Shown one piece after another: positions 5,279 to 49,110 of a stretch of DNA of 61,816 nt (its first letter is position 1; each line of letters opens with the position of its first letter). The notes below the pieces were generated by a model that saw nothing but the letters and a program-made list of their open reading frames with translations, was not told the origin of the DNA and ran no database searches. Made by a program: the position numbers and the translations under genes. Source of the stretch: a virus (Duplodnaviria > Heunggongvirae > Uroviricota > Caudoviricetes); the IMG/VR virus record IMGVR_UViG_2740892042_000003. One strand, written 5' to 3'.

Positions 5279-6211
5279 CTATTCGATTTTTTTAACCATG
5301 TAGTTACGTCGTGATGTTCCTAATCTTTCATTGTGAATCTCAGAAACGCTTACTACGAGCGATATTCGTTCACCAACTTTATATTTACTTTGAATTTCTC
5401 CTAACATATCAATCGGATAAGAAGCCTTTATTTTTCCAAGCTCGCTTGCAATCTCCAATTTCCCGTACATGGATAAAATAGCAAGTTCGCCTGATATATG
5501 CTCATCCGGTAGCTGAATGACCTTCGTTAAAGCTAAGCGAGCATTCAGTTTTTTTATATCTTCTGAAGAAATTGACACTTGTCTGGTACCATCACTTAAA
5601 GGTCCAATCCAAGTAAGATCAAAGTTAAGACTATATTTTTCGCACTCATTTATGATGTTTTTTAGGTTAGCTGTTGATTGCGAACCAATTTCGGCAATTT
5701 TAGCCGTGAATGTTTCTTCATCAATGGATGAGAGTAGTGCAAAAATCTCCTTAACAGCATGACTGGATACTGTTTCGATGAGCTCGCAAGAACCAGTAGA
5801 AAAAGTAACACCTAACTTCGTCGAACCTGGACGCAAGTCTGCCAATCTCATGTCTAATGATTTTTTAACATCAATCGGCACACGACTAGAATCTTTCCCA
5901 GATCCAAGTCGGTAAACTGCTTTCTGTACAAGGGATGCGAGATTACCTGAAATTACAGATAGAATATCTAACGGAATAGACCCGAAATCGACCAAAACAC
6001 CTTTTAATCTCAACTCCATGAAATCACGTAAAGGATGTTGGTTATCGATTGCACGTTGTCTCTCTCGGAGATCGCTCAGATGGGAGTCAAGTGATCTAAA
6101 TATAATGTCATCAGCAAATGATCTCCCCTTATTTTGAGCAAGCAGATCCACATCGCGTTGAATGAACGCAATTCGCTCCTTGAGGGAGTTGAATGTTTTT
6201 TCTTCGCTCAT
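5279..6211 (-). CDS. hypothetical 310-aa protein, distal gene of repressor-linked two-gene operon
   Basis: long ORF, no recognised domain; start ATG overlaps stop of upstream ORF (ATGA); followed by terminator. Confidence 0.7.
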   Translation of the reverse strand: MSEEKTFNSLKERIAFIQRDVDLLAQNKGRSFADDIIFRSLDSHLSDLRERQRAIDNQHPLRDFMELRLKGVLVDFGSIPLDILSVISGNLASLVQKAVYRLGSGKDSSRVPIDVKKSLDMRLADLRPGSTKLGVTFSTGSCELIETVSSHAVKEIFALLSSIDEETFTAKIAEIGSQSTANLKNIINECEKYSLNFDLTWIGPLSDGTRQVSISSEDIKKLNARLALTKVIQLPDEHISGELAILSMYGKLEIASELGKIKASYPIDMLGEIQSKYKVGERISLVVSVSEIHNERLGTSRRNYMVKKIE

Positions 6212-6681
6212 AACATTACCCTCACGAGGCCTTTAGGATTCTCCTTCCGATCAAAACCAAACCACCCTCTCCAGTAACTTCGCCTTTCACTATAATCGAT
6301 TTCTGGATGATTTTCAGGCAGCAAAAGAACGTCAATGCTGTAGTTTTCTTTAATAAAATCTCTATTTAACAATGAGCTAACCAATGGCATCAGCGTGTTT
6401 GGCAAAGAGTTTAGGGCCAAATAATCGACGACCACGAGTATATCTATGTCATCAGGTTCAGGTTTCTCTGTAGTGAATGAACCATCGATCCACACTTCAG
6501 AGAAACATAGACACTGCTGATTAACAAGTTTAAATTGCTCAATAAGCTGTATAAAATTACAGTATAGCATACTTCTTCTAACGGATTTTGGGAAGGTGTC
6601 GACACAAAGAGACTTGATGCCATCACTATCCATATCATGAAATCCTGCTGTAAGAAGAGGTGGGAAGCTAGGCTTTTCCAT
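6208..6681 (-). CDS. minimal nucleotidyltransferase-like protein (Pol-beta superfamily motif)
   Basis: 157 aa with WIDGSF...PEPDDIDILVVVD...YSIDVLLL, fitting the GS-x(n)-DhD plus third acidic strand pattern of MNT/SMODS-type NTases; AAGGA RBS upstream; 81 bp downstream of repressor. Confidence 0.7.
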   Translation of the reverse strand: MEKPSFPPLLTAGFHDMDSDGIKSLCVDTFPKSVRRSMLYCNFIQLIEQFKLVNQQCLCFSEVWIDGSFTTEKPEPDDIDILVVVDYLALNSLPNTLMPLVSSLLNRDFIKENYSIDVLLLPENHPEIDYSERRSYWRGWFGFDRKENPKGLVRVML

Positions 6682-6762
6682 CCTAAGTCCTTGTTTATGC
6701 CATATAGCGTTCTATTTAATATTCTTGAAAAGAGTGTGCCTTAAAAAGCTACAGGCTAATTA

Positions 6763-7491
6763 TTAACCATGCTTCCTGTACGTCTGCGGCATGCTCCCAA
6801 TAACCTTACCGAAGATGAACACCCGGTTCATCTCGTCTTTCTCGATCGGGTCCCACGGTGAGTAGCTCTTGTTATCAGAGATAACCAGTAGCTTATCTTT
6901 CATCATTTGCAGGCGCTTTACATGGGCTGTGTCGTCGTACAGAAACGCATAGATACCATCACCGTCGAAAGATTTAACCGTGATATCAACGAACAGCAGA
7001 TCACCTGGTTCGATCGTTCCTGACATGCTGTCACCACGCACGTTAATGATGCGGATATTTTCCGCCTTCCTGCCATCGAACATGTGACGAGCATCGTCAA
7101 ACGAGTACTCAACCGAGCGTAGAACTTCTACAAACTCACGGTTGATTACACCCGGCCCGGCACTGACTTCTATATCAAGAACGTCAATTTTGAAGTATTT
7201 GGAATGGCTGACAGCAGGCTTCCCTGATTGTTGACCGTCATTTCTCATCGGGCCTATGCCTGATGAGAGCCATTCTGTTCGAACACCCAATGCATTAGCT
7301 ATTTCAACAATTTTTGTTGAGCCGCGCGCGTTGCCGCTTGTCAGTCTCCAGATTGTGGGTTGAGCTACGCCAGACGCCTTTGCAAGAGCGCCTTGAGACA
7401 TTCCAGATTGTTCCATCGCTAGGTTTAAGCGATCAGCAAGAGTTTCTTTTTTCATAAGTTTTAATTTATACGCTTGCGTATTGATGGTCAA
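6763..7491 (-). CDS. CI-type repressor (HTH plus S24 LexA-like autopeptidase)
   Basis: N-terminal HTH (MSQGALAKASGVAQPTIWRL), C-terminal GDSMSGTIEPGD with downstream KRL; divergent from cro-like gene; start may be internal ATG at 7455. Confidence 0.85.
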   Translation of the reverse strand: MTINTQAYKLKLMKKETLADRLNLAMEQSGMSQGALAKASGVAQPTIWRLTSGNARGSTKIVEIANALGVRTEWLSSGIGPMRNDGQQSGKPAVSHSKYFKIDVLDIEVSAGPGVINREFVEVLRSVEYSFDDARHMFDGRKAENIRIINVRGDSMSGTIEPGDLLFVDITVKSFDGDGIYAFLYDDTAHVKRLQMMKDKLLVISDNKSYSPWDPIEKDEMNRVFIFGKVIGSMPQTYRKHG

Positions 7492-7531
7492 AACACGTTT
7501 TGCTATTGCTTGGATTAATACGCATTGCTAT
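7468..7531. promoter_or_regulatory. operator/promoter region between repressor and cro
   Basis: palindrome atacgcttgcgtat (7468-7481) and related atacgcattgctat (7518-7531) in the divergent intergenic region. Confidence 0.5.
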
Positions 7532-7559
7532 TATTCATTCATTGCAATACCAGTAGGAA

Positions 7560-7793
7560 TTGATAATGACAAATCAAACCATTCAACTCGCAATCAGTAT
7601 TACAGGTAGTCAAAAACGACTGGCAGATCTATGCGGTGTAGCCCAACCCACTGTTTGGCGTTGGCTACACGGTGGCGGAATTGATGCCCGCTATGTAATG
7701 AAAATTGTCTCAGCCACTGGTGGAAAGATTAAACCAGCAGATATTCGTCCCGACCTCGCACCATTGTTTAACGCGAGTAATTCTGCCGCCTAA
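7560..7793 (+). CDS. Cro/YdaS-like HTH regulator
   Basis: 77 aa, HTH (QKRLADLCGVAQPTVWRW), divergently transcribed from repressor. Confidence 0.75.
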   Translation: MIMTNQTIQLAISITGSQKRLADLCGVAQPTVWRWLHGGGIDARYVMKIVSATGGKIKPADIRPDLAPLFNASNSAA

Positions 7794-7817
7794 ACTGCGG
7801 CGTTAACTGATAAGGCA

Positions 7818-8363
7818 ATGACTATGCAACCACTTACATACCAACAGACTAGCGGATTTATCCCGACTGCGGTGATAAATCGTTCTCAAATAAAACAGGT
7901 GCCAGGCCACGAAAAAATCCGTGATGCCATCCGCGCCTGGTCGGCTGTAGATAATCAGGATGTCGTTGCCGCACTCATTGTGAATGAGTATCGAGCACAG
8001 GGCGGCGGCACTATCGATTTTCCTGATGATGTCAGTCGTGCACGCCAGAAGCTGTTCCGCTTTCTCGATAACAAATTCGATTCTGAAAAATACCGAAATA
8101 ACGTGCGTGAACTGACTCCAGCAATTCTGGCAGTACTACCGCTGAAATATCGCGGCCACCTGGTTGAGCAGGATAGCTTCATGGCTCGGCTGGCTGAAAT
8201 GGAAAAGGAACTCAGTGAGGCAAAACAGGCTGTCATTCTCAACGCACCACGCCACCAGAAACTGAAGGAGATGAGTGAAGGCATTGTGTCGATGTTTCGT
8301 GTGGACCCGGATTTGGCTGGTCCACTGATGGCGATGGTCACCACCATGCTGGGGGCAATATGA
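7818..8363 (+). CDS. hypothetical protein in cII position
   Basis: 181-aa ORF between cro-like gene and O; no recognised domain. Confidence 0.45.
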   Translation: MTMQPLTYQQTSGFIPTAVINRSQIKQVPGHEKIRDAIRAWSAVDNQDVVAALIVNEYRAQGGGTIDFPDDVSRARQKLFRFLDNKFDSEKYRNNVRELTPAILAVLPLKYRGHLVEQDSFMARLAEMEKELSEAKQAVILNAPRHQKLKEMSEGIVSMFRVDPDLAGPLMAMVTTMLGAI

Positions 8364-8449
8364 CAGGTTCAGAAATGGCGAAAGCCGGTCTGCGCGAACA
8401 GAACCGACTTTCAGGTGCAAATCGTAACACACTCATTGCGGGAGGAATT

Positions 8450-9379
8450 ATGGCAAACACTGCTGAGATATTCAATTTTCCAGTGCCGGATGTGGCACAA
8501 AAGGAGCCGCGCGTGGCAGATCTCGATGATGGTTATACGCGCATTGCAAATGAGTTGCTGGAAGCTGTGATGCTGGCCGGATTAACACAGCACCAGCTTC
8601 TGGTCTTCCTGGCTGTCATGCGCAAAACATATGGCTTTAATAAAAAACTGGATTGGGTGAGCAACGAGCAACTTTCCGAATTGACCGGGATATTGCCGCA
8701 CAAGTGTTCTGCTGCAAAAAGCGTTCTGGTAAAGCGTGGGATTCTTATTCAGAGCGGGCGGAATATCGGCATTAATAATGTGGTCAGTGAATGGTCAACA
8801 TTACCCGAATCAGGTAAGAAAAATAAAGTTTACCTGAAAGAGGTAAATTTACCTGAATCAGGTAAGAAAAGTTTACCCAAATCAGGTAAAGGCGTTTACC
8901 CGAATCAGGTAAACACAAAAGACAAACTAACAAAAGACAATATAAAACCTTTTTCGTCCGAGAATTCTGGCGAATCCTCTGACCAACCAGAAAACGATCT
9001 TCCTGTGGAGAAGCCAGATGCTGCAATTCAGAGCGGCAGCAGGTGGGGGACAGCAGAAGACCTGACCGCCGCAGAGTGGATGTTTGACATGGTGAAGACC
9101 ATCGCGCCATCAGCCAGAAAACCGAATTTTGCAGGGTGGGCTAACGATATCCGCCTGATGCGTGAACGTGACGGACGTAACCACCGCGACATGTGCGTGC
9201 TGTTCCGCTGGGCATGCCAGGACAACTTTTGGTCTGGTAACGTGCTGAGCCCGGCCAAACTTCGCGACAAGTGGACCCAACTCGAAATCAACCGTAACAA
9301 ACAACAGGCTGGCGTGACAGCCGGAAAACCAAAACTCGACCTGACAAACACAGACTGGATTTACGGGGTGGATCTATGA
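8450..9379 (+). CDS. O: replication initiator O-like protein
   Basis: ATG at 8450 preceded by GGAGG; contains in-gene iterons; followed by P with 4-nt overlap; C-terminus resembles lambda O P-binding region. Confidence 0.8.
   Translation: MANTAEIFNFPVPDVAQKEPRVADLDDGYTRIANELLEAVMLAGLTQHQLLVFLAVMRKTYGFNKKLDWVSNEQLSELTGILPHKCSAAKSVLVKRGILIQSGRNIGINNVVSEWSTLPESGKKNKVYLKEVNLPESGKKSLPKSGKGVYPNQVNTKDKLTKDNIKPFSSENSGESSDQPENDLPVEKPDAAIQSGSRWGTAEDLTAAEWMFDMVKTIAPSARKPNFAGWANDIRLMRERDGRNHRDMCVLFRWACQDNFWSGNVLSPAKLRDKWTQLEINRNKQQAGVTAGKPKLDLTNTDWIYGVDL
8803..8910 (+). repeat. replication origin iterons inside O
   Basis: four copies of palindromic core acc[c/t][g/a]aatcaggt at 8803, 8851, 8875, 8898 plus one degenerate copy. 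Confidence 0.65.
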
Positions 9380-10077
9380 AAAACATCGCCGCACAGATGA
9401 TTAACTTTGACCGTGAGCAGATGCGTCGGATCGCCAACAACATGCCGGAACAGTACGACGAAAAGCCGCAGGTACAGCAGGTAGCGCAGATCATCAACGG
9501 TGTATTCAGCCAGTTGCTGGCAACTTTCCCTGCGAGCCTGGCTAACCGTGACCAGAACGAACTGAACGAAATTCGCCGCCAGTGGGTTCTGGCTTTCCGG
9601 GAAAACGGGATCACCACAATGGAACAGGTTAACGCTGGAATGCGCGTAGCCCGTCGGCAGAATCGACCATTCCTGCCATCACCCGGGCAGTTTGTCGCCT
9701 GGTGCCGGGAAGAAGCATCCGTTACCGCCGGGCTGCCAAACGCCAGCGAGCTGGTTGATATGGTTTACGAGTATTGCCGGAAGCGCGGGCTGTATCCGGA
9801 TGCAGAGTCTTATCCGTGGAAATCAAACGCGCACTACTGGCTGGTTACCAACCTGTATCAGAACATGCGGGCTAATGCGTTGACTGACTCGGAATTACGG
9901 CGCAAGGCTGCCGATGAACTTGCCCATATGACTGCGAGAATTAACCGTGGTGAGGCTATACCTGAACCAGTAAAACAACTTCCTGTCATGGGCGGTAGAC
10001 CTCTAAATCGTGCACAGGCTCTGGCGAAGATCGCAGAAATCAAAGCTAAGTTCGGACTGAAAGGAGCAAGTGTATGA
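9376..10077 (+). CDS. P: replication protein P (DnaB loader)
   Basis: 233 aa, near-identical to lambda P. Confidence 0.95.
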   Translation: MKNIAAQMINFDREQMRRIANNMPEQYDEKPQVQQVAQIINGVFSQLLATFPASLANRDQNELNEIRRQWVLAFRENGITTMEQVNAGMRVARRQNRPFLPSPGQFVAWCREEASVTAGLPNASELVDMVYEYCRKRGLYPDAESYPWKSNAHYWLVTNLYQNMRANALTDSELRRKAADELAHMTARINRGEAIPEPVKQLPVMGGRPLNRAQALAKIAEIKAKFGLKGASV

Positions 10078-10378
10078 CGGGCAAAGAGGCAATTATTCAT
10101 TACCTGGGGACGCATAATAGCTTCTGTGCGCCGGACGTTGCCGCGCTAACAGGCGCAACAGTAACCAGCATAAATCAGGCCGCGGCTAAAATGGCACGGG
10201 CAGGTCTTCTGGTTATCGAAGGTAAGGTCTGGTGAACGGTGTATTACCGGTTCGCTACCAGAGAAGAACGGGAAGGAAAGGTGAGCACGAATCTGATTTT
10301 TAAGGAGTGTCGCCAGAGTGCCGCGATGAAACGGGTATTGAGGGTATATAAAAGAACATCAATGGGTACACAATGATG
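10074..10378 (+). pseudogene. ren: ren, inactivated by in-frame TGA after codon 53
   Basis: MTGKEAIIHYLGTHNSFCAPDVAALTGATV...GKVW then TGA at 10233-10235 where lambda Ren has Arg; downstream Ren codons continue in frame. Confidence 0.75.
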
Positions 10379-10443
10379 AAACAGGTGAGTTGAGTTCAAA
10401 CTGTAGTACAATTCTCTCCAGTTTGAACAGGAAAGAATATGTT

Positions 10444-10776
10444 ATGAACCCTTATATTTATCTTGGTGGTGCAATACTTGCAGAGGTCATTGGTACAACC
10501 TTAATGAAGTTTTCAGAAGGTTTTACACGGTTATGGCCATCTGTTGGTACAATTATTTGTTATTGTGCATCATTCTGGTTATTAGCTCAGACGCTGGCTT
10601 ATATTCCTACAGGGATTGCTTATGCTATCTGGTCAGGAGTCGGTATTGTCCTGATTAGCTTACTATCATGGGGGTTTTTCGGCCAACGGCTGGACCTGCC
10701 AGCCGTTATAGGCATGATGTTGATTTGTGCCGGTGTGTTGGTTATTAATTTATTGTCACGAAGCACACCACATTAA
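10444..10776 (+). CDS. emrE: small multidrug resistance efflux transporter EmrE
   Basis: 110 aa MNPYIYLGGAILAEVIGTTLMKFSEGF... matches E. coli EmrE; AT-rich flanks. Confidence 0.95.
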   Translation: MNPYIYLGGAILAEVIGTTLMKFSEGFTRLWPSVGTIICYCASFWLLAQTLAYIPTGIAYAIWSGVGIVLISLLSWGFFGQRLDLPAVIGMMLICAGVLVINLLSRSTPH

Positions 10777-11020
10777 AAATAATTTCTTTTAAAAGACTGA
10801 AATATGGCGGTTCATATCTTTACATGGGCCGCTTTTGTTAATGTTTTTAGTTTTTGTGTATTCTTTTGTGCCTTCAAGATTATTGCGTAAGCAAATTGCA
10901 ATACGATTATTGTTGTATATTCAAAAGAATGTGATCGTAATTGTCTTTTTAAATAAAAATTAAACAAAAATTATATCTCACCACTAAGGTTTATAAAAGC
11001 ATACGTTAGCAGGTGTCACC

Positions 11021-12547
11021 ATGAAAAAAGCCATAGCATATATGCGATTTTCATCACCAGGTCAGATGTCTGGCGACTCATTAAACCGACAGAGAAGACT
11101 TATTGCTGAATGGTTAAAGGTAAATAGTGATTATTATCTTGATACCATAACATATGAAGATTTAGGATTAAGTGCATTCAAAGGAAAGCATGCACAATCA
11201 GGAGCTTTTTCGGAATTTTTAGATGCTATAGAGCATGGTTATATATTGCCAGGAACTACATTGCTAGTTGAAAGTCTGGACAGACTTTCAAGAGAAAAAG
11301 TCGGTGAAGCGATTGAGCGTCTGAAATTGATTTTGAATCACGGTATTGATGTTATAACTCTTTGCGATAATACAGTCTATAATATTGACTCTTTGAATGA
11401 TCCATATTCATTAATAAAAGCCATACTTATAGCACAAAGGGCAAATGAAGAAAGCGAGATAAAGTCAAGTCGGGTTAAATTATCATGGAAGAAAAAACGG
11501 CAGGATGCACTGGAGTCAGGCACGATTATGACGGCGTCTTGTCCGAGATGGCTCTCATTGGATGACAAAAGAACAGCTTTTATTCCAGACCCCGACAGGG
11601 TGAAAACGATTGAGCTAATTTTTAAACTCAGGATGGAAAGGCGATCATTGAATGCAATAGCCAAGTATTTAAATGATCATGCTGTAAAAAATTTCTCAGG
11701 AAAAGAAAGTGCATGGGGGCCTTCTGTAATTGAAAAATTATTAGCGAATAAAGCTCTGATAGGTATATGCGTACCTTCATATCGTGCAAGAGGTAAAGGA
11801 ATAAGTGAAATCGCTGGCTATTATCCCAGAGTCATATCAGATGATTTGTTTTACGCTGTGCAGGAAATTCGGTTGGCACCTTTTGGTATTAGCAATAGTA
11901 GCAAAAATCCTATGTTGATAAATCTACTTCGAACAGTTATGAAGTGCGAGGCTTGTGGTAATACCATGATTGTTCATGCGGTATCTGGAAGTTTGCATGG
12001 CTATTATGTTTGTCCGATGAGAAGACTGCATCGATGTGGCAGGCCATCAATAAAGAGAGATTTGGTTGATTATAATATCATTAATGAGTTGCTTTTTAAT
12101 TGTAGTAAAATCCAACCAGTTGAAAACAAGAAAGATGCTAATGAAACTTTAGAGTTGAAAATTATTGAGCTCCATATGAAAATTAATAATTTAATTGCTG
12201 CATTATCTGTTGCGCCTGAAGTTACCGCTATAGCAGAAAAAATCAGAGTATTAGATAAGGAATTACGAAGGGCTTCTGTATCATTAAAAACTTTGAAGAG
12301 TAAAGCGGTGAGCTCACTTGGTGATTTTCATGCTATTGACTTAACCAGTAAAAATGGGCGAGAGCTATGTCGTACACTTGCCTATAAAACATTCGAAAAA
12401 ATCATAATCAATACAGATAATAAAACCTGTGATATCTATTTTATGAATGGCATTGTTTTTAAACACTATCCTTTAATGAAAACAATATCCGCCCAGCAGG
12501 CGATAAGTACTCTCAAATATATGGTTGATGGTGAGGTTTATTTTTGA
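11021..12547 (+). CDS. ybcK: large serine recombinase YbcK
   Basis: 508 aa; N-terminal resolvase-type catalytic domain (AYMRFSSPGQ), large C-terminal domain with Cys cluster; matches DLP12 YbcK. Confidence 0.9.
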   Translation: MKKAIAYMRFSSPGQMSGDSLNRQRRLIAEWLKVNSDYYLDTITYEDLGLSAFKGKHAQSGAFSEFLDAIEHGYILPGTTLLVESLDRLSREKVGEAIERLKLILNHGIDVITLCDNTVYNIDSLNDPYSLIKAILIAQRANEESEIKSSRVKLSWKKKRQDALESGTIMTASCPRWLSLDDKRTAFIPDPDRVKTIELIFKLRMERRSLNAIAKYLNDHAVKNFSGKESAWGPSVIEKLLANKALIGICVPSYRARGKGISEIAGYYPRVISDDLFYAVQEIRLAPFGISNSSKNPMLINLLRTVMKCEACGNTMIVHAVSGSLHGYYVCPMRRLHRCGRPSIKRDLVDYNIINELLFNCSKIQPVENKKDANETLELKIIELHMKINNLIAALSVAPEVTAIAEKIRVLDKELRRASVSLKTLKSKAVSSLGDFHAIDLTSKNGRELCRTLAYKTFEKIIINTDNKTCDIYFMNGIVFKHYPLMKTISAQQAISTLKYMVDGEVYF

Positions 12548-12658
12548 GTAATAATCACTTTTTCAACCGTGCTATAGTAAGAAAGTTAGGTAAGTACAAT
12601 AAAATTATCTATCCTGAACGAAGCGTCCTGAGCTATGGTTTTACTATAGGGACTGCCA

Positions 12659-12982
12659 ATGGATGCTGGCGTTCTCGTTCTAGCAGTTCAACAATCCCCA
12701 ATCACAAAACAATTCACTGATAACGAACTTTGCACACTCGCCTGGTTATGGCGAGCAGGGAATGTGATGTTAATTGCCTACCAGAACGTTACTCATCTTC
12801 TTCAGGATGCGGAGCATGGTGAAGCTGGTCACTTCACTTCCATCGAGCAAGAATATCCCCAGATACTCAACAGAGCGCGAGCAATCCTCGTCCGAGAAAC
12901 GGCACATGTAAAACTTCAGCCGTGGCAGGATGATAAGTGGAGTCGAGTATTGCCGCATTTACCTCAGAATCTGTTTCAATAA
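12659..12982 (+). CDS. hypothetical protein
   Basis: 107-aa ORF, no recognised domain. Confidence 0.35.
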   Translation: MDAGVLVLAVQQSPITKQFTDNELCTLAWLWRAGNVMLIAYQNVTHLLQDAEHGEAGHFTSIEQEYPQILNRARAILVRETAHVKLQPWQDDKWSRVLPHLPQNLFQ

Positions 12983-13156
12983 AGGCGCTAGTTAGTAAGG
13001 CTTCCGTCATTCTGCGATGACGGAAGTGCGGGCTGCGTACGGGAGAGCAATTGCATGAATAATATAAATATTCCGCTCACTCCATATAGCGATTTCTGAT
13101 ACAAACTTATCTATTGTGGTAAAATTATAGAAACAAACTTATAGCGTACTAACCAT

Positions 13157-13939
13157 ATGGACAATATTAATAAACACGGGCTCTCAAGAAGAATACCTGA
13201 GACAATAAAACGTCAGATAAGGCAAAGGTGCGGCTTTGGCTGTGTAATTTGTGGATTTGGATTTTATGATTATGAGCATTTTAAACCTGACTTCGTTGAT
13301 GCCAAAGTACATGATCCGAATGGAATGACACTTCTTTGCTCCCAATGCAATCAAAAAAGAGCTCGTGGTAGACTTTCAGCACAGACAGTGGAAATAGCTG
13401 ACAGAAATCCCAAGTGCTTACAGGCTGGTTTTGCAAATGAAATGTTTGATTTTCATAATGAGCCTATAACAGTAAAATTTGCAGGAGTGACGTTTCATAA
13501 CTGTCAAAATTTGATTGTAGTCAACGAACAACCCATTCTTTCTGTGAAACCTTCACCCATACCACATGGACCGATGCTTTTATCAGGAATTTTCTGTAAT
13601 TCTATTGGTAAGGAGACTTTACTGATAGATGAAAATGAATGGAAAGCTAAATCAGACAATTGGGATGTGGAGTGTACCGGCCCGCGTATAACAATACGAC
13701 GTGGGCCAGGAGAGTTTGCCCTCGTTCTAAAAATGGAACCTCCAACAGGATTGATTGTTGAGCGTCTTGATATGTTGTATGAAGGGGTCAGGATGAAAGG
13801 AGATAAAGATCTGCTGGAAGTTTCGATTAATGGAGGTCCCTTGCACAGATGGCAATCATGCTCAATGTCAAATTGCCATACAGGGCTTGCGATTCAGGGC
13901 GGTATTAGAGCTGCTAATGATCCTTTGTATTGCGCCTAA
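13157..13939 (+). CDS. HNH endonuclease-domain protein with uncharacterised C-terminal domain
   Basis: N-terminus CGFGCVICGF...YEHFKPDF...HDPNGMTLLCSQCN fits the HNH CxxC...H...N...CxxC pattern; 260 aa. Confidence 0.65.
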   Translation: MDNINKHGLSRRIPETIKRQIRQRCGFGCVICGFGFYDYEHFKPDFVDAKVHDPNGMTLLCSQCNQKRARGRLSAQTVEIADRNPKCLQAGFANEMFDFHNEPITVKFAGVTFHNCQNLIVVNEQPILSVKPSPIPHGPMLLSGIFCNSIGKETLLIDENEWKAKSDNWDVECTGPRITIRRGPGEFALVLKMEPPTGLIVERLDMLYEGVRMKGDKDLLEVSINGGPLHRWQSCSMSNCHTGLAIQGGIRAANDPLYCA

Positions 13940-14131
13940 ATCCACTAAATTGATTTTCAACAATCAACTTGCCATAATTAAGTCACCGGAGTTTGAACTC
14001 CTCCGGTGACTTCTGCGCTAAACGGGGACGTTTATGCGCACATACAATCCAACCTCTCTTCTCCATTCACAGATGCAGAAATGCACCTGCGATATTTTGC
14101 ATCCAGCGTTTGATCTCTGCGGAGGTGAAGC

Positions 14132-14587
14132 GTGAACCTCCCACAAGATGGTATCAAATTGCATCGCGGTAACTTCACCGCTATCGGTCGGCAGATCCAG
14201 CCTTATCTGGAGGACGGCAAATGCTTTCGCATGGTGCTTAAACCGTGGCGCGAGAGACGCAGTCTTTCCCAGAATGCACTCAGCCACATGTGGTACAGCG
14301 AAATCAGTGAATACCTCATCAGCAAGGGTAAAACGTTCGCCACTCCAGCTTGGGTAAAAGATGCTCTCAAACACACATATCTCGGTTATGAAACCAAAGA
14401 CCTGGTTGATGTCGTAACCGGTGATATCACCACTATCCAGTCGTTACGCCATACCTCCGATCTTGATACCGGAGAGATGTATGTCTTCCTGTGTAAGGTT
14501 GAAGCCTGGGCGATGAATATTGGCTGCCACCTGACTATTCCGCAGAGCTGCGAGTTCCAGCTGCTGCGTGATAAGCAGGAGGCGTAA
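14132..14587 (+). CDS. ybcN: YbcN (DLP12 nin-region protein)
   Basis: 151 aa, matches remembered E. coli YbcN. Confidence 0.85.
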
Positions 14588-16153: not shown

Positions 16154-16678
16154 TTATTGTTTAACCCATAATAATTCATTGACATTGAATCCCAACTTTT
16201 GAGCGGTTCGCACATAGTCTGCTTTTACTTTATCTGGAATAGTTGAGGTCCTTGCCAGAATCCATAGGTATTCTCTGTTCGGACCACTGACAAGAGCATA
16301 CTTATACTCATCATCCAGTTTGATTACATTATAGCCACCATAGAAGGGGCCAAAAAACGAAACCTTCAACGCTGCAGTTTTAGTATCTCCAGTAAAGTAT
16401 GCTTTACCTTCGCTCTCGCTCCATTTATTTTTCGTTGGATCGTATCCACGGTTAAGTACACGAATCCCTCCGTCGTTCCGTTTTCCATAAGTAGCGCTGA
16501 CCTGTTCCAGACCACGTTCGAACCGGTTCTCGAGGCGAGCTATTTCATACCATTTTCCGAGGTAGCGGTTGGCGTCAAAATTTGTAATCGGCTGCACACC
16601 TTTAGGTGGTGTCGGGGCCTTACATGCTATAAGAGTGAAAGAGAGCGCAATGCCAGTCAACACAGGCCATAACTTCAT
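16154..16678 (-). CDS. Blc-like outer-membrane lipocalin lipoprotein
   Basis: 174 aa with lipobox LIAC and lipocalin signature NFDANRYLGKWYEIARLENRFERG; homologous to, not identical with, E. coli Blc. Confidence 0.85.
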   Translation of the reverse strand: MKLWPVLTGIALSFTLIACKAPTPPKGVQPITNFDANRYLGKWYEIARLENRFERGLEQVSATYGKRNDGGIRVLNRGYDPTKNKWSESEGKAYFTGDTKTAALKVSFFGPFYGGYNVIKLDDEYKYALVSGPNREYLWILARTSTIPDKVKADYVRTAQKLGFNVNELLWVKQ

Positions 16679-16870
16679 AATAAATCCTGTACTTTTGATA
16701 GTTGAGAGTAAGTATGAAAGATAGATGATTACGACCGATCACTTAAAGAACTTTCATACTATATTAGGAATAGTCCATAACAGAAAAATTGTCAGTGATG
16801 ACGCCAGAAAGGCAATTTATTCCGTGCACTACACAGTTTATGTGTTAATGAATTAGTCAAGGGGGAGGAT

Positions 16871-17830
16871 ATGATAAAAAAACCTGTGATTGGAATCAGC
16901 GGTTGTTTGGCCGGTTCTGCTGTTCGTTTTGATGGTGGTCACAAAAGAGCTGACTTTTTAATGGACAAATTAGTGGAATGGGTAACATTCAGACCAGTAT
17001 GTCCGGAAATGGCTATAGGGCTGCCAGTTCCGCGTCCTGCTCTACGTCTTGTGCGCTCGACGCAAGGAAATATACGGATGTGTTTCAGCCACGACCAGAA
17101 TGAGGATGTGACAGAGAGAATGACAGAGTTTAGTCGTTCTTATATGGACAAATTAAAGGATGTATCGGGGTTTGTGGTTTGTGCTAAATCTCCCAGCTGT
17201 GGCATGGAGCGCGTGCGTGTCTATGATGAAAATGGTAATCGAGGTCGTAAAGATGGAGTGGGACTATTTACGAGCACTTTGATGGAAAAGTTTTCCTGGC
17301 TACCGGTTGAAGAGGATGGGCGATTACATGATCCAGTGCTTCGTGAGAATTTTGTTGAAAGAGTTTTTGCTTTGCATGAGCTCAATCACCTTTACAAGGA
17401 GAAATTATCAAGAAGAGAGTTATTGGCTTTTCATAGTCGTTATAAGCTTCAGTTGTTGGCGCATAGTCAGACAGGCTATAAAGATATGGGACCATTTGTG
17501 GCTGCAATACACGAGTGGGCGGATCTTGAATCATACTTTGAGGTGTATCGTGATAAGCTGATGGCGATTCTCAGAAAACCTGCATCACGTAAAAATCACA
17601 CGAATGTGCTGATGCATATACAGGGGTATTTTAGTAACTACTTAAGTACACGCCAGCGTAAAGAGTTGAGCGAGGTTATACTTAACTATCGTTCTGGCAC
17701 ATTACCTCTTCTTGCGCCGTTGACTCTGCTGAAGCATTATCTGGGTGAGTATCCTAATGATTACTTGCTTACACAGAATTACTTCGATCCCTATCCGGAC
17801 GAACTGGCTCTAAGACTGATGGTAAATTAA
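16871..17830 (+). CDS. DUF523-DUF1722 fusion protein (TudS/YbgA-like)
   Basis: N-terminal GISGCLAGSAVRFDGGH...CPE...CGMER Cys pattern (DUF523) followed by YbgA-like C-terminal region. Confidence 0.65.
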   Translation: MIKKPVIGISGCLAGSAVRFDGGHKRADFLMDKLVEWVTFRPVCPEMAIGLPVPRPALRLVRSTQGNIRMCFSHDQNEDVTERMTEFSRSYMDKLKDVSGFVVCAKSPSCGMERVRVYDENGNRGRKDGVGLFTSTLMEKFSWLPVEEDGRLHDPVLRENFVERVFALHELNHLYKEKLSRRELLAFHSRYKLQLLAHSQTGYKDMGPFVAAIHEWADLESYFEVYRDKLMAILRKPASRKNHTNVLMHIQGYFSNYLSTRQRKELSEVILNYRSGTLPLLAPLTLLKHYLGEYPNDYLLTQNYFDPYPDELALRLMVN

Positions 17831-18172
17831 TTGTATGCGATATCATCCAAAAGGATGAGTTCCTGCATACAGGATATTTACAATCGTAAAAACTACACTA
17901 TGATACCCAGAGTGTCAGTTTGTATAAAAACTCTGTTTACGCTGAAGAAACCATTGAGATGCAACTTAAATTTGGTAAACATGCCAGTCAAAATATATGA
18001 TATTATGATTCCACGCAGCTATATATAATATAACAGATTGGTTTAATAATTTGTCTTTGTGAGTTAAATACATAATTTTATACTTGTGATGCAATGAGAT
18101 TTTCCTTATTGTTGAACTGGCGAATATTGATTTTCCACCTATACTTACCTGGTGTAACCCCAATGATATCAG

Positions 18173-18913
18173 GTGGATAATATGCCATACATATGTTCTA
18201 TCATTTTGGTGTTGAACTCGTTTGATGTCCGAATTGGTAAAGAAGATATTTTGTTTAAAAAAGGAAGTGCTGTTCTCATTGATTACAATTTAAAAGATTT
18301 TTTTTCATCAAATATAGATCATGTAATGATCGTAGATGTTGAAGAGAAAACAGTTAATGATTTCTTTAAAAGCAACACACTCTCACCTTTTTCTGTAAGA
18401 AGGTTTTATCCGGCATACTTGATGGTGGAATGTGAAGATTTTTCATTGTTAAAGAACTTGATTGCATGCTTGAATTGTGATGGCAGAACTGTGGATTTTG
18501 TTAGAAATCAAATATCACTTGCATGTCTTGCTATCTTATCTTCAGAGAAAATAGTGCAAAGTTTTTTATTTGGATGTCTTAATAGTTTAGGAAGTAAAGT
18601 TAAGGCTATTATTCACACGGATATATCTGCAACATGGAGACTTTGTGATATATCTTCAAGACTGTATCTGAGTGAAAGTCTGTTAAAAAGAAAATTAAAG
18701 CACGAAGGCTTATCATTTAGTAAATTAATTCTTGAAGAGCGAATGGTGATGGCGGAAAGGTTATTAAGCTACAATTTATATTCTGTTGGAAAAGTTGCTG
18801 AGATATGCGGTTATGAAAACACGTCATATTTTGTAAGTGTTTTCAGAAGATATTTTGGTGTTCCTCCCCATCAATATTCATCAAGATTTTTTTTAGAAAA
18901 AGACATGATGTAA
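18173..18913 (+). CDS. AraC-family transcriptional regulator
   Basis: C-terminal AraC HTH (KVAEICGYENTSYFVSVFRRYFGVPPHQY); architecture like AppY/YbcM. Confidence 0.75.
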   Translation: MDNMPYICSIILVLNSFDVRIGKEDILFKKGSAVLIDYNLKDFFSSNIDHVMIVDVEEKTVNDFFKSNTLSPFSVRRFYPAYLMVECEDFSLLKNLIACLNCDGRTVDFVRNQISLACLAILSSEKIVQSFLFGCLNSLGSKVKAIIHTDISATWRLCDISSRLYLSESLLKRKLKHEGLSFSKLILEERMVMAERLLSYNLYSVGKVAEICGYENTSYFVSVFRRYFGVPPHQYSSRFFLEKDMM

Positions 18914-47034: not shown

Positions 47035-47732
47035 TGCAGGATATCCGGCAGGAAACACTGAATGAATGCACCCGTGCGGAGCAGTCGGCCAGCGTGGTGC
47101 TCTGGGAAATCGATCTGACAGAGGTCGGTGGTGAACGTTATTTTTTCTGTAATGAGCAGAACGAAAAAGGTGAGCCGGTTACCTGGCAGGGGCGACAGTA
47201 TCAGGCGTATCCCATTCAGGGGAGCGGTTTTGAACTGAATGGCAAAGGCACCAGTACGCGCCCCACGCTGACGGTTTCTAACCTGTACGGTATGGTCACC
47301 GGGATGGCGGAAGATCTGCAGAGTCTGGTCGGCGGAACGGTGGTCAGGCGTAAGGTTTACGCCCGTTTTCTGGATGCGGTGAACTTCGTCAACGGAAACA
47401 GCGACGCCGATCCGGAGCAGGAGGTGATCAGCCGCTGGCGCATCGAGCAGTGCAGCGAACTGAGCGCAGTCAGTGCCTCTTTTGTACTGTCCACGCCGAC
47501 GGAAACGGACGGCGCTGTTTTTCCGGGACGTATCATGCTGGCCAACACCTGCACCTGGACCTATCGCGGTGATGAGTGCGGTTATAGCGGTCCGGCGGTC
47601 GCGGATGAATATGACCAGCCAACGTTCGATATCACGAAGGATAAATGCAGCAAATGCCTGAGTGGCTGTAAGTTCCGCAATAACGTCGATAACTTTGGCG
47701 GCTTCCTTTCCATTAACAAACTTTCGCAGTAA
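47034..47732 (+). CDS. L: minor tail protein L
   Basis: 232 aa matching lambda gpL. Confidence 0.9.
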   Translation: MQDIRQETLNECTRAEQSASVVLWEIDLTEVGGERYFFCNEQNEKGEPVTWQGRQYQAYPIQGSGFELNGKGTSTRPTLTVSNLYGMVTGMAEDLQSLVGGTVVRRKVYARFLDAVNFVNGNSDADPEQEVISRWRIEQCSELSAVSASFVLSTPTETDGAVFPGRIMLANTCTWTYRGDECGYSGPAVADEYDQPTFDITKDKCSKCLSGCKFRNNVDNFGGFLSINKLSQ

Positions 47733-47737
47733 ATCTC

Positions 47738-48481
47738 ATGACAGAGACAGAATCAGCGATTCTGGCGCACGCCCGGCGATGTGCGCCAGCGGAGTCGTGC
47801 GGCTTCGTGGTGAGAACGCCGGAGGGGGAAAGATATTTTCCCTGCGTGAATATTTCCGGTGAGCCGGAGGAGTATTTCCGGATGGCTCCGGAGGACTGGC
47901 TGCAGGCAGAGATGCAGGGTGAGATTGTGGCGCTGGTCCACAGCCACCACGGTGGTCTGCCCTGGCTGAGTGAGGCCGACAGGCGGCTGCAGGTGCAGAG
48001 TGATTTGCCGTGGTGGCTGGTCTGCCGGGGTGAGATTCATAAGTTCCGCTGTGTGCCGCATCTCACCGGGCGGCGCTTTGAGCACGGGGTGACGGACTGT
48101 TACACGCTGTTCCGGGACGCTTACCATCTGGCGGGGATTGAGATGCCGGACTTTCATCGTGAGGATGACTGGTGGCGTCACGGTCAGAATCTCTATCTGG
48201 ATAATCTGGAGGCAACGGGGCTGTATCAGGTGCCGTTGTCAGCGGCGCAGCCGGGCGATGTGCTGCTGTGCTGCTTTGGTTCATCGGTGCCGAATCATGC
48301 CGCCATTTACTGTGGTGACGGCGAGCTGCTGCACCATATTCCTGAACAACTGAGCAAACGAGAGAGGTATACCGACAAATGGCAGCGACGCACACACTCC
48401 CTCTGGCGTCACCGGGCATGGCGCGCATCTGCCTTTACGGGGATTTACAACGATTTGGTCGCCGCATCGACCTTCGTGTGA
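47738..48481 (+). CDS. K: tail assembly protein K
   Basis: 247 aa matching lambda gpK; overlaps I. Confidence 0.9.
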   Translation: MTETESAILAHARRCAPAESCGFVVRTPEGERYFPCVNISGEPEEYFRMAPEDWLQAEMQGEIVALVHSHHGGLPWLSEADRRLQVQSDLPWWLVCRGEIHKFRCVPHLTGRRFEHGVTDCYTLFRDAYHLAGIEMPDFHREDDWWRHGQNLYLDNLEATGLYQVPLSAAQPGDVLLCCFGSSVPNHAAIYCGDGELLHHIPEQLSKRERYTDKWQRRTHSLWRHRAWRASAFTGIYNDLVAASTFV

Positions 48482-49050
48482 AAACGGGGGCTGAAGCCAT
48501 CCGGGCACTGGCCACACAGCTCCCGGCGTTTCGTCAGAAACTGAGCGACGGCTGGTATCAGGTACGGATTGCCGGGCGGGATGTCAGCACGTCCGGGTTA
48601 ACGGCGCAGTTACATGAGACTCTGCCTGATGGCGCTGTGATTCATATTGTTCCCAGAGTCGCCGGGGCCAAGTCAGGTGGTGTATTCCAGATTGTCCTGG
48701 GAGCAGCCGCCATTGCCGGATCATTCTTTACCGCCGGAGCCACCCTTGCAGCATGGGGGGCTGCCATTGGTGCCGGTGGTATGACCGGCATTCTGTTTTC
48801 TCTCGGTGCCAGTATGGTGCTCGGCGGTGTGGCTCAGATGCTGGCACCGAAAGCCAGAACTCCCCGCACACAGACAACGGATAACGGTAAGCAGAACACC
48901 TATTTCTCCTCATTGGATAACATGGTTGCCCAGGGCAATGTCCTGCCTGTTCTGTACGGTGAAATGCGCGTGGGGTCACGTGTGGCATCTCAGGAGATCA
49001 GCACGGCAGATGAAGGGGACGGTGGTCAGGTTGTGGTGATTGGTCGATGA
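48379..49050 (+). CDS. I: tail assembly protein I
   Basis: 223 aa matching lambda gpI. Confidence 0.85.
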   Translation: MAATHTLPLASPGMARICLYGDLQRFGRRIDLRVKTGAEAIRALATQLPAFRQKLSDGWYQVRIAGRDVSTSGLTAQLHETLPDGAVIHIVPRVAGAKSGGVFQIVLGAAAIAGSFFTAGATLAAWGAAIGAGGMTGILFSLGASMVLGGVAQMLAPKARTPRTQTTDNGKQNTYFSSLDNMVAQGNVLPVLYGEMRVGSRVASQEISTADEGDGGQVVVIGR

Positions 49051-49110
49051 TGCAAAATATTTTATGTGAAACCGCCTGCGGGCGGTTTTGTCGTTTATGG
49101 AGCATGACGA

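Follow-up and report, generated by a model that had tools for sequence, protein, structure and literature searches.

Why does a lambdoid prophage with an integrase of its own carry an intact gene for a large serine recombinase, next to an efflux pump gene, between ren and the nin genes? The 61,816-nucleotide stretch of DNA analysed here (hereafter the window) is in its entirety one complete lambdoid prophage, inserted at icd, that encodes a tyrosine integrase and an excisionase of its own and ends in an icd' remnant; positions 9800–14200 are 100% identical to E. coli strain 582. A first-pass annotation had proposed that emrE and ybcK form one AT-rich cassette, perhaps a nested integrative or invertible element and not ordinary phage cargo. 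Our answer is plainer. emrE and ybcK are two separately acquired cargo modules of the DLP12 type, which is already annotated, and the whole of 10341–13949 is probably mosaic accessory cargo ('morons') lodged in the gap between ren and ninB (Table 1).

Table 1. Features of the ren–ninB gap and its borders, in window coordinates.
Feature	Position	Strand	Basis or remark
ren pseudogene	10074–10376	+	'internal stop' annotation in strain 582; translation compared with locus L004
Left mosaic joint of the variable patch	10341–10366	.	blastn and sequences
emrE module, single-gene unit	10367–10784 (CDS 10444–10776)	+	also beside fliE without ybcK
Smallest ybcK block common to all E. coli arrangements	10785–12556	+	236 nt upstream to 9 nt downstream of the ORF
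ybcK leader, 29% GC	10785–11020	+	holds a 40-aa ylcJ-like ORF at 10841–10963
Intrinsic terminator hairpin 3' of emrE, within the ybcK block	10806–10833	+	terminator scan
ybcK, intact 508-aa large serine recombinase	11021–12547	+	domain, profile and structure searches
107-aa ORF, P22 antirepressor C-terminal domain (P22AR_C)	12659–12982	+	domain searches, locus comparison
260-aa ORF, PHROG 6544, weak HNH-like N-terminus	13157–13939	+	in the variable patch
Common right rejoin: small ylcH-like ORF and ybcN (ninB homologue)	13950–14587	+	sequence comparison

Much of the first-pass description held up. ren is inactivated by a nonsense codon (TGA at 10233–10235, where an intact allele has CGA); the efflux gene is present, its product matching NCBIfam SMR_efflux_EmrE at 240 bits (cut-off 226) and Pfam PF00893; and the 508-aa recombinase gene is there and intact. 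The DNA is indeed foreign in composition. The GC content of 10777–11020 is 0.287 and that of 12548–12658 is 0.360; ybcK stands at 0.361 and emrE at 0.417, whereas the flanking phage genes reach 0.506 (O–P) and 0.496 (ybcN–Q). The AT-richness is therefore real and spans the two genes as well as the spacers, and a composition so unlike that of the host phage (0.29–0.42 against ∼0.50) is one of the marks of a moron. An Rfam scan of the window gave no match.

Comparison with prophages that lack the cassette, which had been suggested as a way to define insertion boundaries, gives clear outer limits. By blastn, homology to a prophage with neither emrE nor ybcK stops at 10340 and resumes at 13950; the variable patch runs on to 13949 and takes in the 260-aa ORF. 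Homology to the chromosomal emrE locus begins at 10367, and the final 11 codons of ren are unlike between patch-bearing and patch-free phages.

Within these limits, the proposed single cassette comes apart into separate units. In 2627 of 5426 complete E. coli genomes, emrE occurs without ybcK and is joined straight to ybcL at fliE–yedK. In about half of complete E. coli genomes, the chromosomal emrE lies within the stump of a lambdoid phage. Matches to emrE-only genomes stop at window position 10783–10784. Moreover, prophages of two genomes (one of which, Rb-50, we read in detail) have emrE joined straight to an alpha/beta hydrolase gene. ybcK and its leader form a clean present/absent block directly after the emrE stop codon, and the left joint of this block, 10784/10785, is identical everywhere compared. 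The terminator hairpin just inside it carries compensatory changes in both arms between alleles, and the final ∼150 nt of the leader are near-invariant across alleles. A scan for a promoter of the module's own returned 16 promoter-like matches, which is not above the level in shuffles (12.4 ± 3.8).

The right edge is a different matter. Its breakpoints fall into at least seven classes (12556/12586, 12613, 12832, 12873/12878, 12962, 12970/12975 and 13033), or there is none at all, and yet homology resumes at 13950 in every compared phage, whatever the right breakpoint. The first-pass annotation had allowed that its cassette would fall if comparative alignments gave no discrete boundaries. Discrete joints exist, so it does not fall on that account: the boundaries are sharp on the left (10340–10367 and 10784/10785) and at the rejoin (13950), whereas the right edge of ybcK is ragged. 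The P22AR_C ORF, on which the first-pass annotation was silent although it lies inside the interval described there, lies 3' of ybcK at the majority of E. coli loci; Perceval-type phages have it cut at 12832, and the K-12 type lacks it. In Perceval/LF82-type phages, what is left of the P22AR_C ORF runs into a duplicate of the final codons of emrE. This fusion is exactly the product expected of out-of-register recombination between a window-type and an Rb-50-type phage. Because the P22AR_C ORF is truncated in the Perceval/LF82 type, the intact arrangement of the window is ancestral.

ybcK does not appear to move about within E. coli. It is present in 1427 of the 5426 complete genomes (about a quarter), in 80 viral contigs and in 12 lambdoid phage isolate records. 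The median number of copies per genome is one and the maximum two. The same emrE–ybcK junction, in the same orientation, is found in 1399 of the 1427 genomes; it is kept in all 76 of the 80 IMG/VR contigs whose sequence extends left of the block, and it is the position of ybcK in all three isolate records inspected. Arrangement and orientation are the same in 80 of 80 IMG/VR loci, broken only by IS insertions. No second insertion site was seen in the 1427 genomes, and the several copies or sites within a species that mark a serine transposon are not found for ybcK.

Nor do the ends of the block look like those of an element. Direct and inverted repeats over 10200–14100, a range that takes in the flanks of 10390–12600 where the first-pass annotation had suggested a search, are short, chance-level matches only. 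Terminal inverted or direct repeats at seven cassette ends do not exceed those of shuffles. We identified no attP, attB or directionality factor for YbcK, and ybcK does not have the layout of an integrase gene beside attP in an element bounded by attL and attR; the ends of the prophage are made by the tyrosine integrase at icd. With a fixed junction, a tyrosine int and xis of the prophage's own and no repeats above chance, the nested integrative element of the first-pass annotation is not supported. The joints resemble those of ordinary lambdoid mosaic recombination, and the view that this is something other than ordinary phage cargo is not supported either.

The recombinase itself is no fragment. 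YbcK has, in order, a catalytic domain, a recombinase domain, a zinc ribbon with a coiled coil and a small C-terminal beta domain. It matches Resolvase (PF00239, E 5e-19), Recombinase (PF07508) and Zn_ribbon_recom (PF13408), and PHROG 95 'integrase' at E 2e-119. The catalytic residues R9, S11 (the nucleophile), D87, R88 and R91 are invariant across genera, in 18 relatives that are 40–60% identical; the zinc residues C309, C312, C331 and C339 are likewise invariant in relatives of that identity. The zinc ribbon region aligns with the C-terminal domain of A118 integrase, and the AlphaFold model (pLDDT 78.6) places paired helices at 370–397 and 402–430, the predicted coiled-coil arm within the zinc ribbon domain. 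The best Foldseek matches of the model are full-length serine integrases (E 4e-19 and below). Selection has evidently acted on the gene: dN/dS is 0.06–0.10 (dS reaching 0.18), each of the nine alleles examined is full length, and the main YbcK protein cluster has 6144 full-length members. On this comparative evidence, YbcK is a complete large serine recombinase kept intact by selection, and it is probably active as a recombinase.

We found no biochemical or genetic study of YbcK recombination in a literature search, and no function or target in the literature searched. A PADLOC scan of YbcK, the P22AR_C ORF, the 260-aa ORF, EmrE and the small ORF returned no match, and we rejected a defence role for YbcK and its neighbours. 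A Rho/NusG-dependent terminator has been reported within the untranslated leader of K-12 ybcK (PMC4150792). Combining the K-12 literature with lambda biology, we infer that ybcK would not be expressed in the lysogen, owing to the Rho-dependent terminator in its AT-rich leader, and would be read from pR along with the rest of the nin genes as soon as antitermination by N sets in. The recombinase would then work at some DNA site at an early stage of infection or induction. Its most plausible role is that of an accessory or alternative integrase, which we offer as a tentative suggestion.

Our preferred reading of the patch as mosaic cargo implies the following history. The patch would have grown step by step out of three or more independent modules, one with emrE, one with ybcK and its leader, and one with the P22AR_C ORF and the 260-aa ORF. 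The builder would have been recombination between related phages, with pairing in the shared P–ren–emrE stretch on the left and illegitimate joining on the right. Neither the patch nor the emrE–ybcK pair would have been moved or flipped by YbcK. Some observations count against the cargo reading. It does not account for the strong purifying selection on a recombinase that has no visible substrate. The clean 2.0–2.1 kb present/absent block at a stop codon is also the trace expected of site-specific insertion. And sharply bounded single-gene recombinase cassettes in unrelated contexts hint at some mobility of their own.

That last point leads to the relatives of YbcK. Three pairs of loci share only the recombinase gene and short flanks: L028 and L038 (1808 bp, 94% identical, reaching 223 nt 5' and 56 nt 3' of the ORF), L017 and L033 (1649 bp at 83%) and L011 and L101 (1602 bp at 77%). 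The contexts are varied, comprising nin regions, the right ends of prophages beyond genes for tail-fibre assembly, plasmids and a defence-type island with a tyrosine recombinase. Several relatives in other genera sit at prophage right ends adjoining host genes (the ends that we read) and may serve there as the integrase of the prophage. YbcK-family genes are usually more AT-rich than their flanks, and diverged partial gene duplications border several of the blocks. No motif upstream of the recombinase gene is conserved across subfamilies; some members have a palindromic operator-like sequence, which E. coli ybcK lacks. A gene pair that adjoins the recombinase in other genera, encoding a UmuD'-like protein and an unknown 80-aa protein, looks like unrelated cargo.

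From these contexts one might suppose that YbcK-type genes are recombinase-only selfish cassettes of ∼1.6–2.1 kb that move themselves between phages, islands and plasmids of Enterobacterales, the E. coli copy being one landed example. We consider this unlikely. The cassette ends lie at no constant distance from the ORF (62–236 nt on the upstream side, 0–405 nt on the downstream side) and have no repeats, and E. coli has one copy per genome at a fixed site. Moreover, joints at gene boundaries and single-gene modules are a normal outcome of phage mosaicism under selection. A broader version gets a similarly low rating from us: the family would be solo large serine recombinases travelling as single-gene cassettes among phages, islands and plasmids, and kept either for self-mobilization, as a recombinase-only mobile element, or as the early-expressed recombinase of the carrier phage, acting on a target elsewhere (for example, as a second integration route).

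A narrower proposal is that the ybcK block (∼10785 to 12556–12832) is a small integrative element that YbcK put into a site overlapping the stop codon of emrE and that is now fixed in the phage lineage. Two independent pairs of empty and filled sites (fliE-type and K-12-type; Rb-50 and LF82/Perceval) do have the same left joint at the emrE stop. In the second pair, the ybcK block is flanked by a 38-bp imperfect target duplication that includes an identical 15-nt stretch, CATTAAAAATAATTT. Dyad symmetry is weak at the empty Rb-50 site (12 of 17 pairs, a score reached by 25 of 500 shuffles), and in E. coli, L101 and L038 alike the recombinase gene reads inward, 150–350 nt in from the left joint. 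However, next to the right joint the two filled types have unrelated element-side sequences and hence lack a shared att arm; the right end interrupts an ORF left whole in the window type, a sign that this joint is secondary; and the second empty site, in HH45, has no dyad symmetry (score reached by 489 of 500 shuffles). Together with the lack of terminal repeats and of a second insertion site noted above, this makes the proposal improbable.

Could ybcK instead be a dead integrase, the relic of an old phage fusion with no present function? No att site, partner gene or defence-family match was found for it, and the gene is silenced by Rho in K-12 (PMC4150792). The selection, the full-length alleles and cluster members and the invariant catalytic residues described above all speak against decay, as does the retention of ybcK in plaque-forming phages. 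A phenotype of both knock-out and overexpression of ybcK has been reported in BL21 (PMC7181518). We regard a dead relic as very unlikely. A Hin/Gin/Pin-like switch in which YbcK flips emrE or adjoining DNA, the invertible cassette of the first-pass annotation, is already contradicted and extremely unlikely: serine recombinases of cryptic prophages such as PinQ can invert DNA (PMC12529663), but the best inverted repeats around emrE and ybcK are imperfect, 15–17 nt long, lie in AT-rich DNA and belong to a set of 76 such pairs over 3.9 kb, a single orientation prevails in the genomes and viral contigs, and YbcK, a large recombinase of the integrase type with a coiled coil, is no ∼190-aa invertase.

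As mosaic cargo, the ren–ninB gap is a well-resolved case of lambdoid cargo build-up, with both parent and product arrangements recovered from genomes. If active, YbcK would count as a new serine recombinase native to E. coli and as a possible genome-engineering tool.

How does the locus compare with known systems? Lambdoid morons and mosaic modules, as in the model of Hendrix and Juhala and in lambda bor and lom, are among the closest. The patch shares with them a deviant composition, joints that fall at gene boundaries, a variable presence among phages that are collinear elsewhere, and a terminator, here the one 3' of emrE. It differs in what it carries: not a surface or resistance protein but a recombinase with no evident benefit to phage or host. 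TnpX of Tn4451, TndX of Tn5397 and the IS607-type transposases are serine recombinases that move compact DNA segments via circles; the IS607 enzymes are small, with an N-terminal DNA-binding domain. Like these, YbcK is a serine recombinase, and its family occurs as single-gene cassettes in varied contexts, but ybcK lacks conserved ends, multiple copies and alternative sites within E. coli. With the integrases of phiC31, Bxb1, A118/LI and SPbeta (SprA), YbcK shares the domain order, Ser11 and the Arg/Asp set, and its best structural matches are full-length integrase–DNA complexes, although it is only 14–20% identical in sequence to solved integrases. Those integrases adjoin attP and define the ends of their prophages, whereas the ends of the window are made by a tyrosine integrase. 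Pin, Gin and Hin (PinQ: PMC12529663) resemble YbcK as serine recombinases in a lambdoid prophage; they are ∼190 aa with inverted crossover sites and both orientations, none of which we found for ybcK.

The matching known locus is that of DLP12 of E. coli K-12 (renD–emrE–ybcK–ybcL–ybcM). The locus is this long-annotated arrangement, and the finding is therefore an ordinary one. Both prophages have the same genes, emrE and ybcK with its ylcJ-like leader, arranged and oriented alike and 94–96% identical in nucleotides, and the nin genes ybcN–ninE–ybcO–rusA–ylcG–Q lie downstream in both. DLP12 is cryptic, whereas the window prophage is complete, at icd; ren is interrupted by an IS in the former and by a nonsense codon in the latter. 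K-12-type homology ends at 12586, and the ybcL–ybcM of DLP12 are replaced in the window by the P22AR_C ORF and the 260-aa ORF.

The window holds a complete lambda-like prophage of ~49.7 kb, as indicated by its match to E. coli strain 582 (100% identity over 9800-14200) and by the annotation of that record. Tyrosine integrase and excisionase genes are followed by bet/exo/gam, a CI/Cro-type switch, O, P, the nin region and Q, and then by lysis, head and tail genes, appY, ompT and an icd' remnant. Because ompT lies inside the prophage, with the icd duplicate beyond it, the OmpT protease is prophage cargo. Genes for a DUF6932 protein and a 310-aa hypothetical protein adjoin the CI-like repressor gene, apparently in the slot of lambda rexAB, and are possible exclusion genes. 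Lipocalin (Blc-like), YbgA-family and helix-turn-helix genes lie between the Q antiterminator and the lysis genes, the slot that stx occupies in Shiga-toxin phages.

Between P and ybcN (the ninB homologue) lies the ren-emrE-ybcK region. The first-pass annotation had proposed that emrE and ybcK may form a single nested integrative or invertible cassette, flanked by AT-rich DNA and lying next to an inactivated ren. Its description of the region was accurate: both genes are present, ren carries a stop codon, and GC content is 28.7% and 36.0% in the two spacers it named, 36.1% in ybcK and 41.7% in emrE, against ~50% in neighbouring phage genes. It omitted the P22AR_C and 260-aa ORFs of the same variable patch. 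The latter has no match in Pfam or PADLOC; it fills a gap where other phages have HEPN or SIR2-type genes.

Features of the window and of the fetched comparison loci (L-numbers; each locus in its own coordinates)
Locus	Feature	Position	Details
Window	Tyrosine integrase and excisionase genes	2-1370	adjoining icd
Window	DUF6932 and 310-aa protein genes	~5279-6681	- strand
Window	ren	10074-10376	CGA to TGA at 10233-10235
Window	emrE	10444-10776	
Window	ybcK	11021-12547	508 aa; Resolvase, Recombinase, zinc-ribbon domains
Window	P22AR_C ORF	12659-12982	107 aa; same variable patch as emrE/ybcK
Window	260-aa ORF	13157-13939	PHROG 6544; Cys-rich, weakly HNH-like N-terminus; same patch
Window	Lipocalin, YbgA-family, helix-turn-helix genes	16154-18900	
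Window	appY, ompT	~47100-49758	prophage right end
Window	icd' remnant	~49591-49758	partial icd duplicate, marks attR
L003; L020	fliE-yedK locus, emrE-ybcL-ybcM without ybcK	6001-8154; 5884-8038	other E. coli strains
L028 / L038	Shared recombinase block	9778-11583 / 9780-11583	1808 bp, 94%; 223 nt upstream to 56 nt downstream of ORF
L017 / L033	Shared recombinase block	7874-9522 / 9885-11522	1649 bp, 83%; 127 nt upstream to 4 nt downstream of ORF
L011 / L101	Shared recombinase block		1602 bp, 77%; 68 nt upstream of ORF to stop codon
L101	DUF1367 5' end duplicates at recombinase block	9623-9851; 12609-12831	first 60 codons; 97% amino-acid, 82.5% nucleotide identity
L023	DUF1367 5' end duplicates at recombinase block		
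L038	Duplicates	9281-9657; 12216-12592	part of lambda-P-like gene
L011; L015; L102; L103	UmuD'-like/80-aa gene pair	7092-7684; 10207-10772; 9325-9890; 9212-9845	
L147	Insertion	1-447	just past emrE terminator; reads as IS1 InsB
L141, L149	Insertions	window 10154-10162	~1.3-2.4 kb, assumed IS
L132	Insertion	window 12596-12598	~1.3-2.4 kb, assumed IS
L144	Insertion	window 12812-12825	~1.3-2.4 kb, assumed IS

The proposed single cassette is not supported: emrE without ybcK is common, the emrE-ybcK junction and its orientation are nearly constant, and no att-like repeats were seen in the window. A repeat search around the genes (10200-14100) returned only short imperfect matches, as expected in AT-rich DNA. 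The related EC45 prophage, which has neither gene, is collinear with the window as far as 10340, with collinearity returning at 13950, and a fliE-side chromosomal locus, emrE-ybcL-ybcM without ybcK, has only 10367-10784 in common with it. Counted with an artificial emrE-to-ybcL junction query that had to align as a single piece, the ybcK-less joint occurs in 2627 of 5426 complete E. coli genomes, about half. At the HH45 fliE locus an nmpC-like porin is also kept, after emrE-ybcL-ybcM, and the locus therefore has the look of a DLP12-like prophage reduced to a stump in which only cargo genes were kept.

Comparison gives a sharp boundary to the left of ybcK and a ragged one to its right. Relative to the ybcK-less locus, the K-12 type contains a clean additional block of 2083 bp (ylcJ, ybcK and a further 309 bp), whose left edge falls within ~15 nt past the emrE stop codon. 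On the right the edge varies: across 80 IMG/VR contigs plus ten annotated genomes and phages, homology with the window stops at 12556/12586 (K-12 type), 12613, 12832, 12873/12878, 12962, 12970/12975 or 13033, or does not stop, and it always picks up again at 13950. The block common to all arrangements is 10785-12556, the recombinase gene with a 236-nt leader.

Within E. coli, ybcK is present in 1427 of the 5426 genomes (median one copy, maximum two; identity at least 94%), and the emrE-ybcK junction query is covered in 1399 of these. All IMG/VR contigs that reach left of the block (76/80) agree in left flank and orientation, and the few exceptions to the fixed arrangement among the 80 are insertions that are, or are assumed to be, IS elements. 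In different strains such insertions break homology at various places in the ren-emrE-ybcK region. Twelve lambdoid phage records hold ybcK; in the three inspected (Perceval, PhiR34_1, Turner) it lies in the nin region, in the order ren-emrE-ybcK. Neither inversion nor alternative sites were seen in the surveyed genomes and contigs, nor att-like repeats in the window.

In the Perceval/LF82 type, the P22AR_C ORF is cut at codon ~58 and fused to a second emrE 3' copy (the last codons plus 30 nt downstream, slightly damaged), after which comes an alpha/beta hydrolase gene. This fusion led us to predict a parent phage in which emrE and the hydrolase gene adjoin directly, and to search for it. Indeed, the predicted joint was found in two genomes, and the order in Rb-50 is ren-emrE-hydrolase-ybcN. 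Given this parent, the Perceval type fits an out-of-register recombination product of a window-type (emrE-ybcK-P22AR_C) and an Rb-50-type phage, which would have paired on the left and joined illegitimately on the right. The window arrangement is the older of the two, because its P22AR_C is intact and that of the Perceval-type product is truncated. Alternatively, the 38-bp duplication flanking the block could be attL and attR. However, the element-side sequences at the right joint are unrelated between the K-12 and Perceval types, the empty site has marginal dyad symmetry in Rb-50 and none in HH45, and the cassette ends have no repeats above shuffles.

In other genomes the YbcK family is found in nin-like regions of other lambdoid phages (L017, L101), at prophage right ends past the tail-fibre assembly gene, in shufflon/Mob surroundings, on plasmids and in small islands. 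Pairs of these loci have only the recombinase gene and short flanks in common, and at several recombinase blocks a neighbouring gene recurs on both sides as diverged partial copies. The cassette ends have neither constant positions nor repeats. The shared single-gene blocks and bracketing duplicates are compatible with selfish single-gene mobility, but no less with mosaic exchange plus selection that favours joints at gene boundaries. The sharply bounded cassettes sit in unrelated surroundings: the P-gene region of a phage, a small island, and an island of defence type that also has an AIPR-like protein and a tyrosine recombinase. In four genera, the recombinase at prophage right ends is accompanied by a gene pair, one UmuD'-like (N-terminus MGFPSPA..DY) and one a conserved 80-aa gene, placed upstream of it in three genera and downstream in one.

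None of nine E. coli ybcK alleles is truncated; their dN/dS is 0.06-0.10, at dS up to 0.18. Relatives of ~509 aa and 40-61% identity occur in Atlantibacter, Yersinia, Erwinia, Pantoea, Kluyvera, Ewingella and Citrobacter; across 18 of them, aligned, R9, S11, D87, R88, R91 and the four zinc cysteines do not vary. In the AlphaFold model (pLDDT 78.6), the catalytic domain is followed by a long E helix, a recombinase domain, a zinc ribbon that carries a coiled coil of two helices and, at the C-terminus, a small beta domain; in the PDB the model best matches full-length serine integrases in complex with DNA, including those of phiC31, Bxb1 and A118. By its domains, invariant residues and low dN/dS, YbcK is a structurally complete serine integrase-type enzyme, kept intact by selection. 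PADLOC gave no defence match for YbcK, and literature searches found no paper on it as a recombinase.

In K-12, a Rho/NusG-dependent terminator in the untranslated region upstream of ybcK keeps the gene off (PMC4150792). The leader is near-invariant among the alleles compared, which fits such a terminator; we infer that, in this phage, N antitermination would let ybcK be expressed along with the nin genes. After emrE, a predicted terminator hairpin (10806-10833) differs between alleles in both arms (GGCGGTTCAT...ATGGGCCGC versus GGAGGCTCTT...ATGAGCCTC), and because these changes are compensatory they support a real structure. In BL21, sabinene tolerance rises on ybcK overexpression and falls on knock-out, in a paper that gives no mechanism (PMC7181518).

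An intact, conserved serine integrase-like enzyme is present here in phages that already carry a tyrosine integrase. The patch itself is layered phage cargo, of the kind already annotated in DLP12, a cryptic prophage of K-12 with the order renD-emrE-ybcK-ybcL-ybcM.
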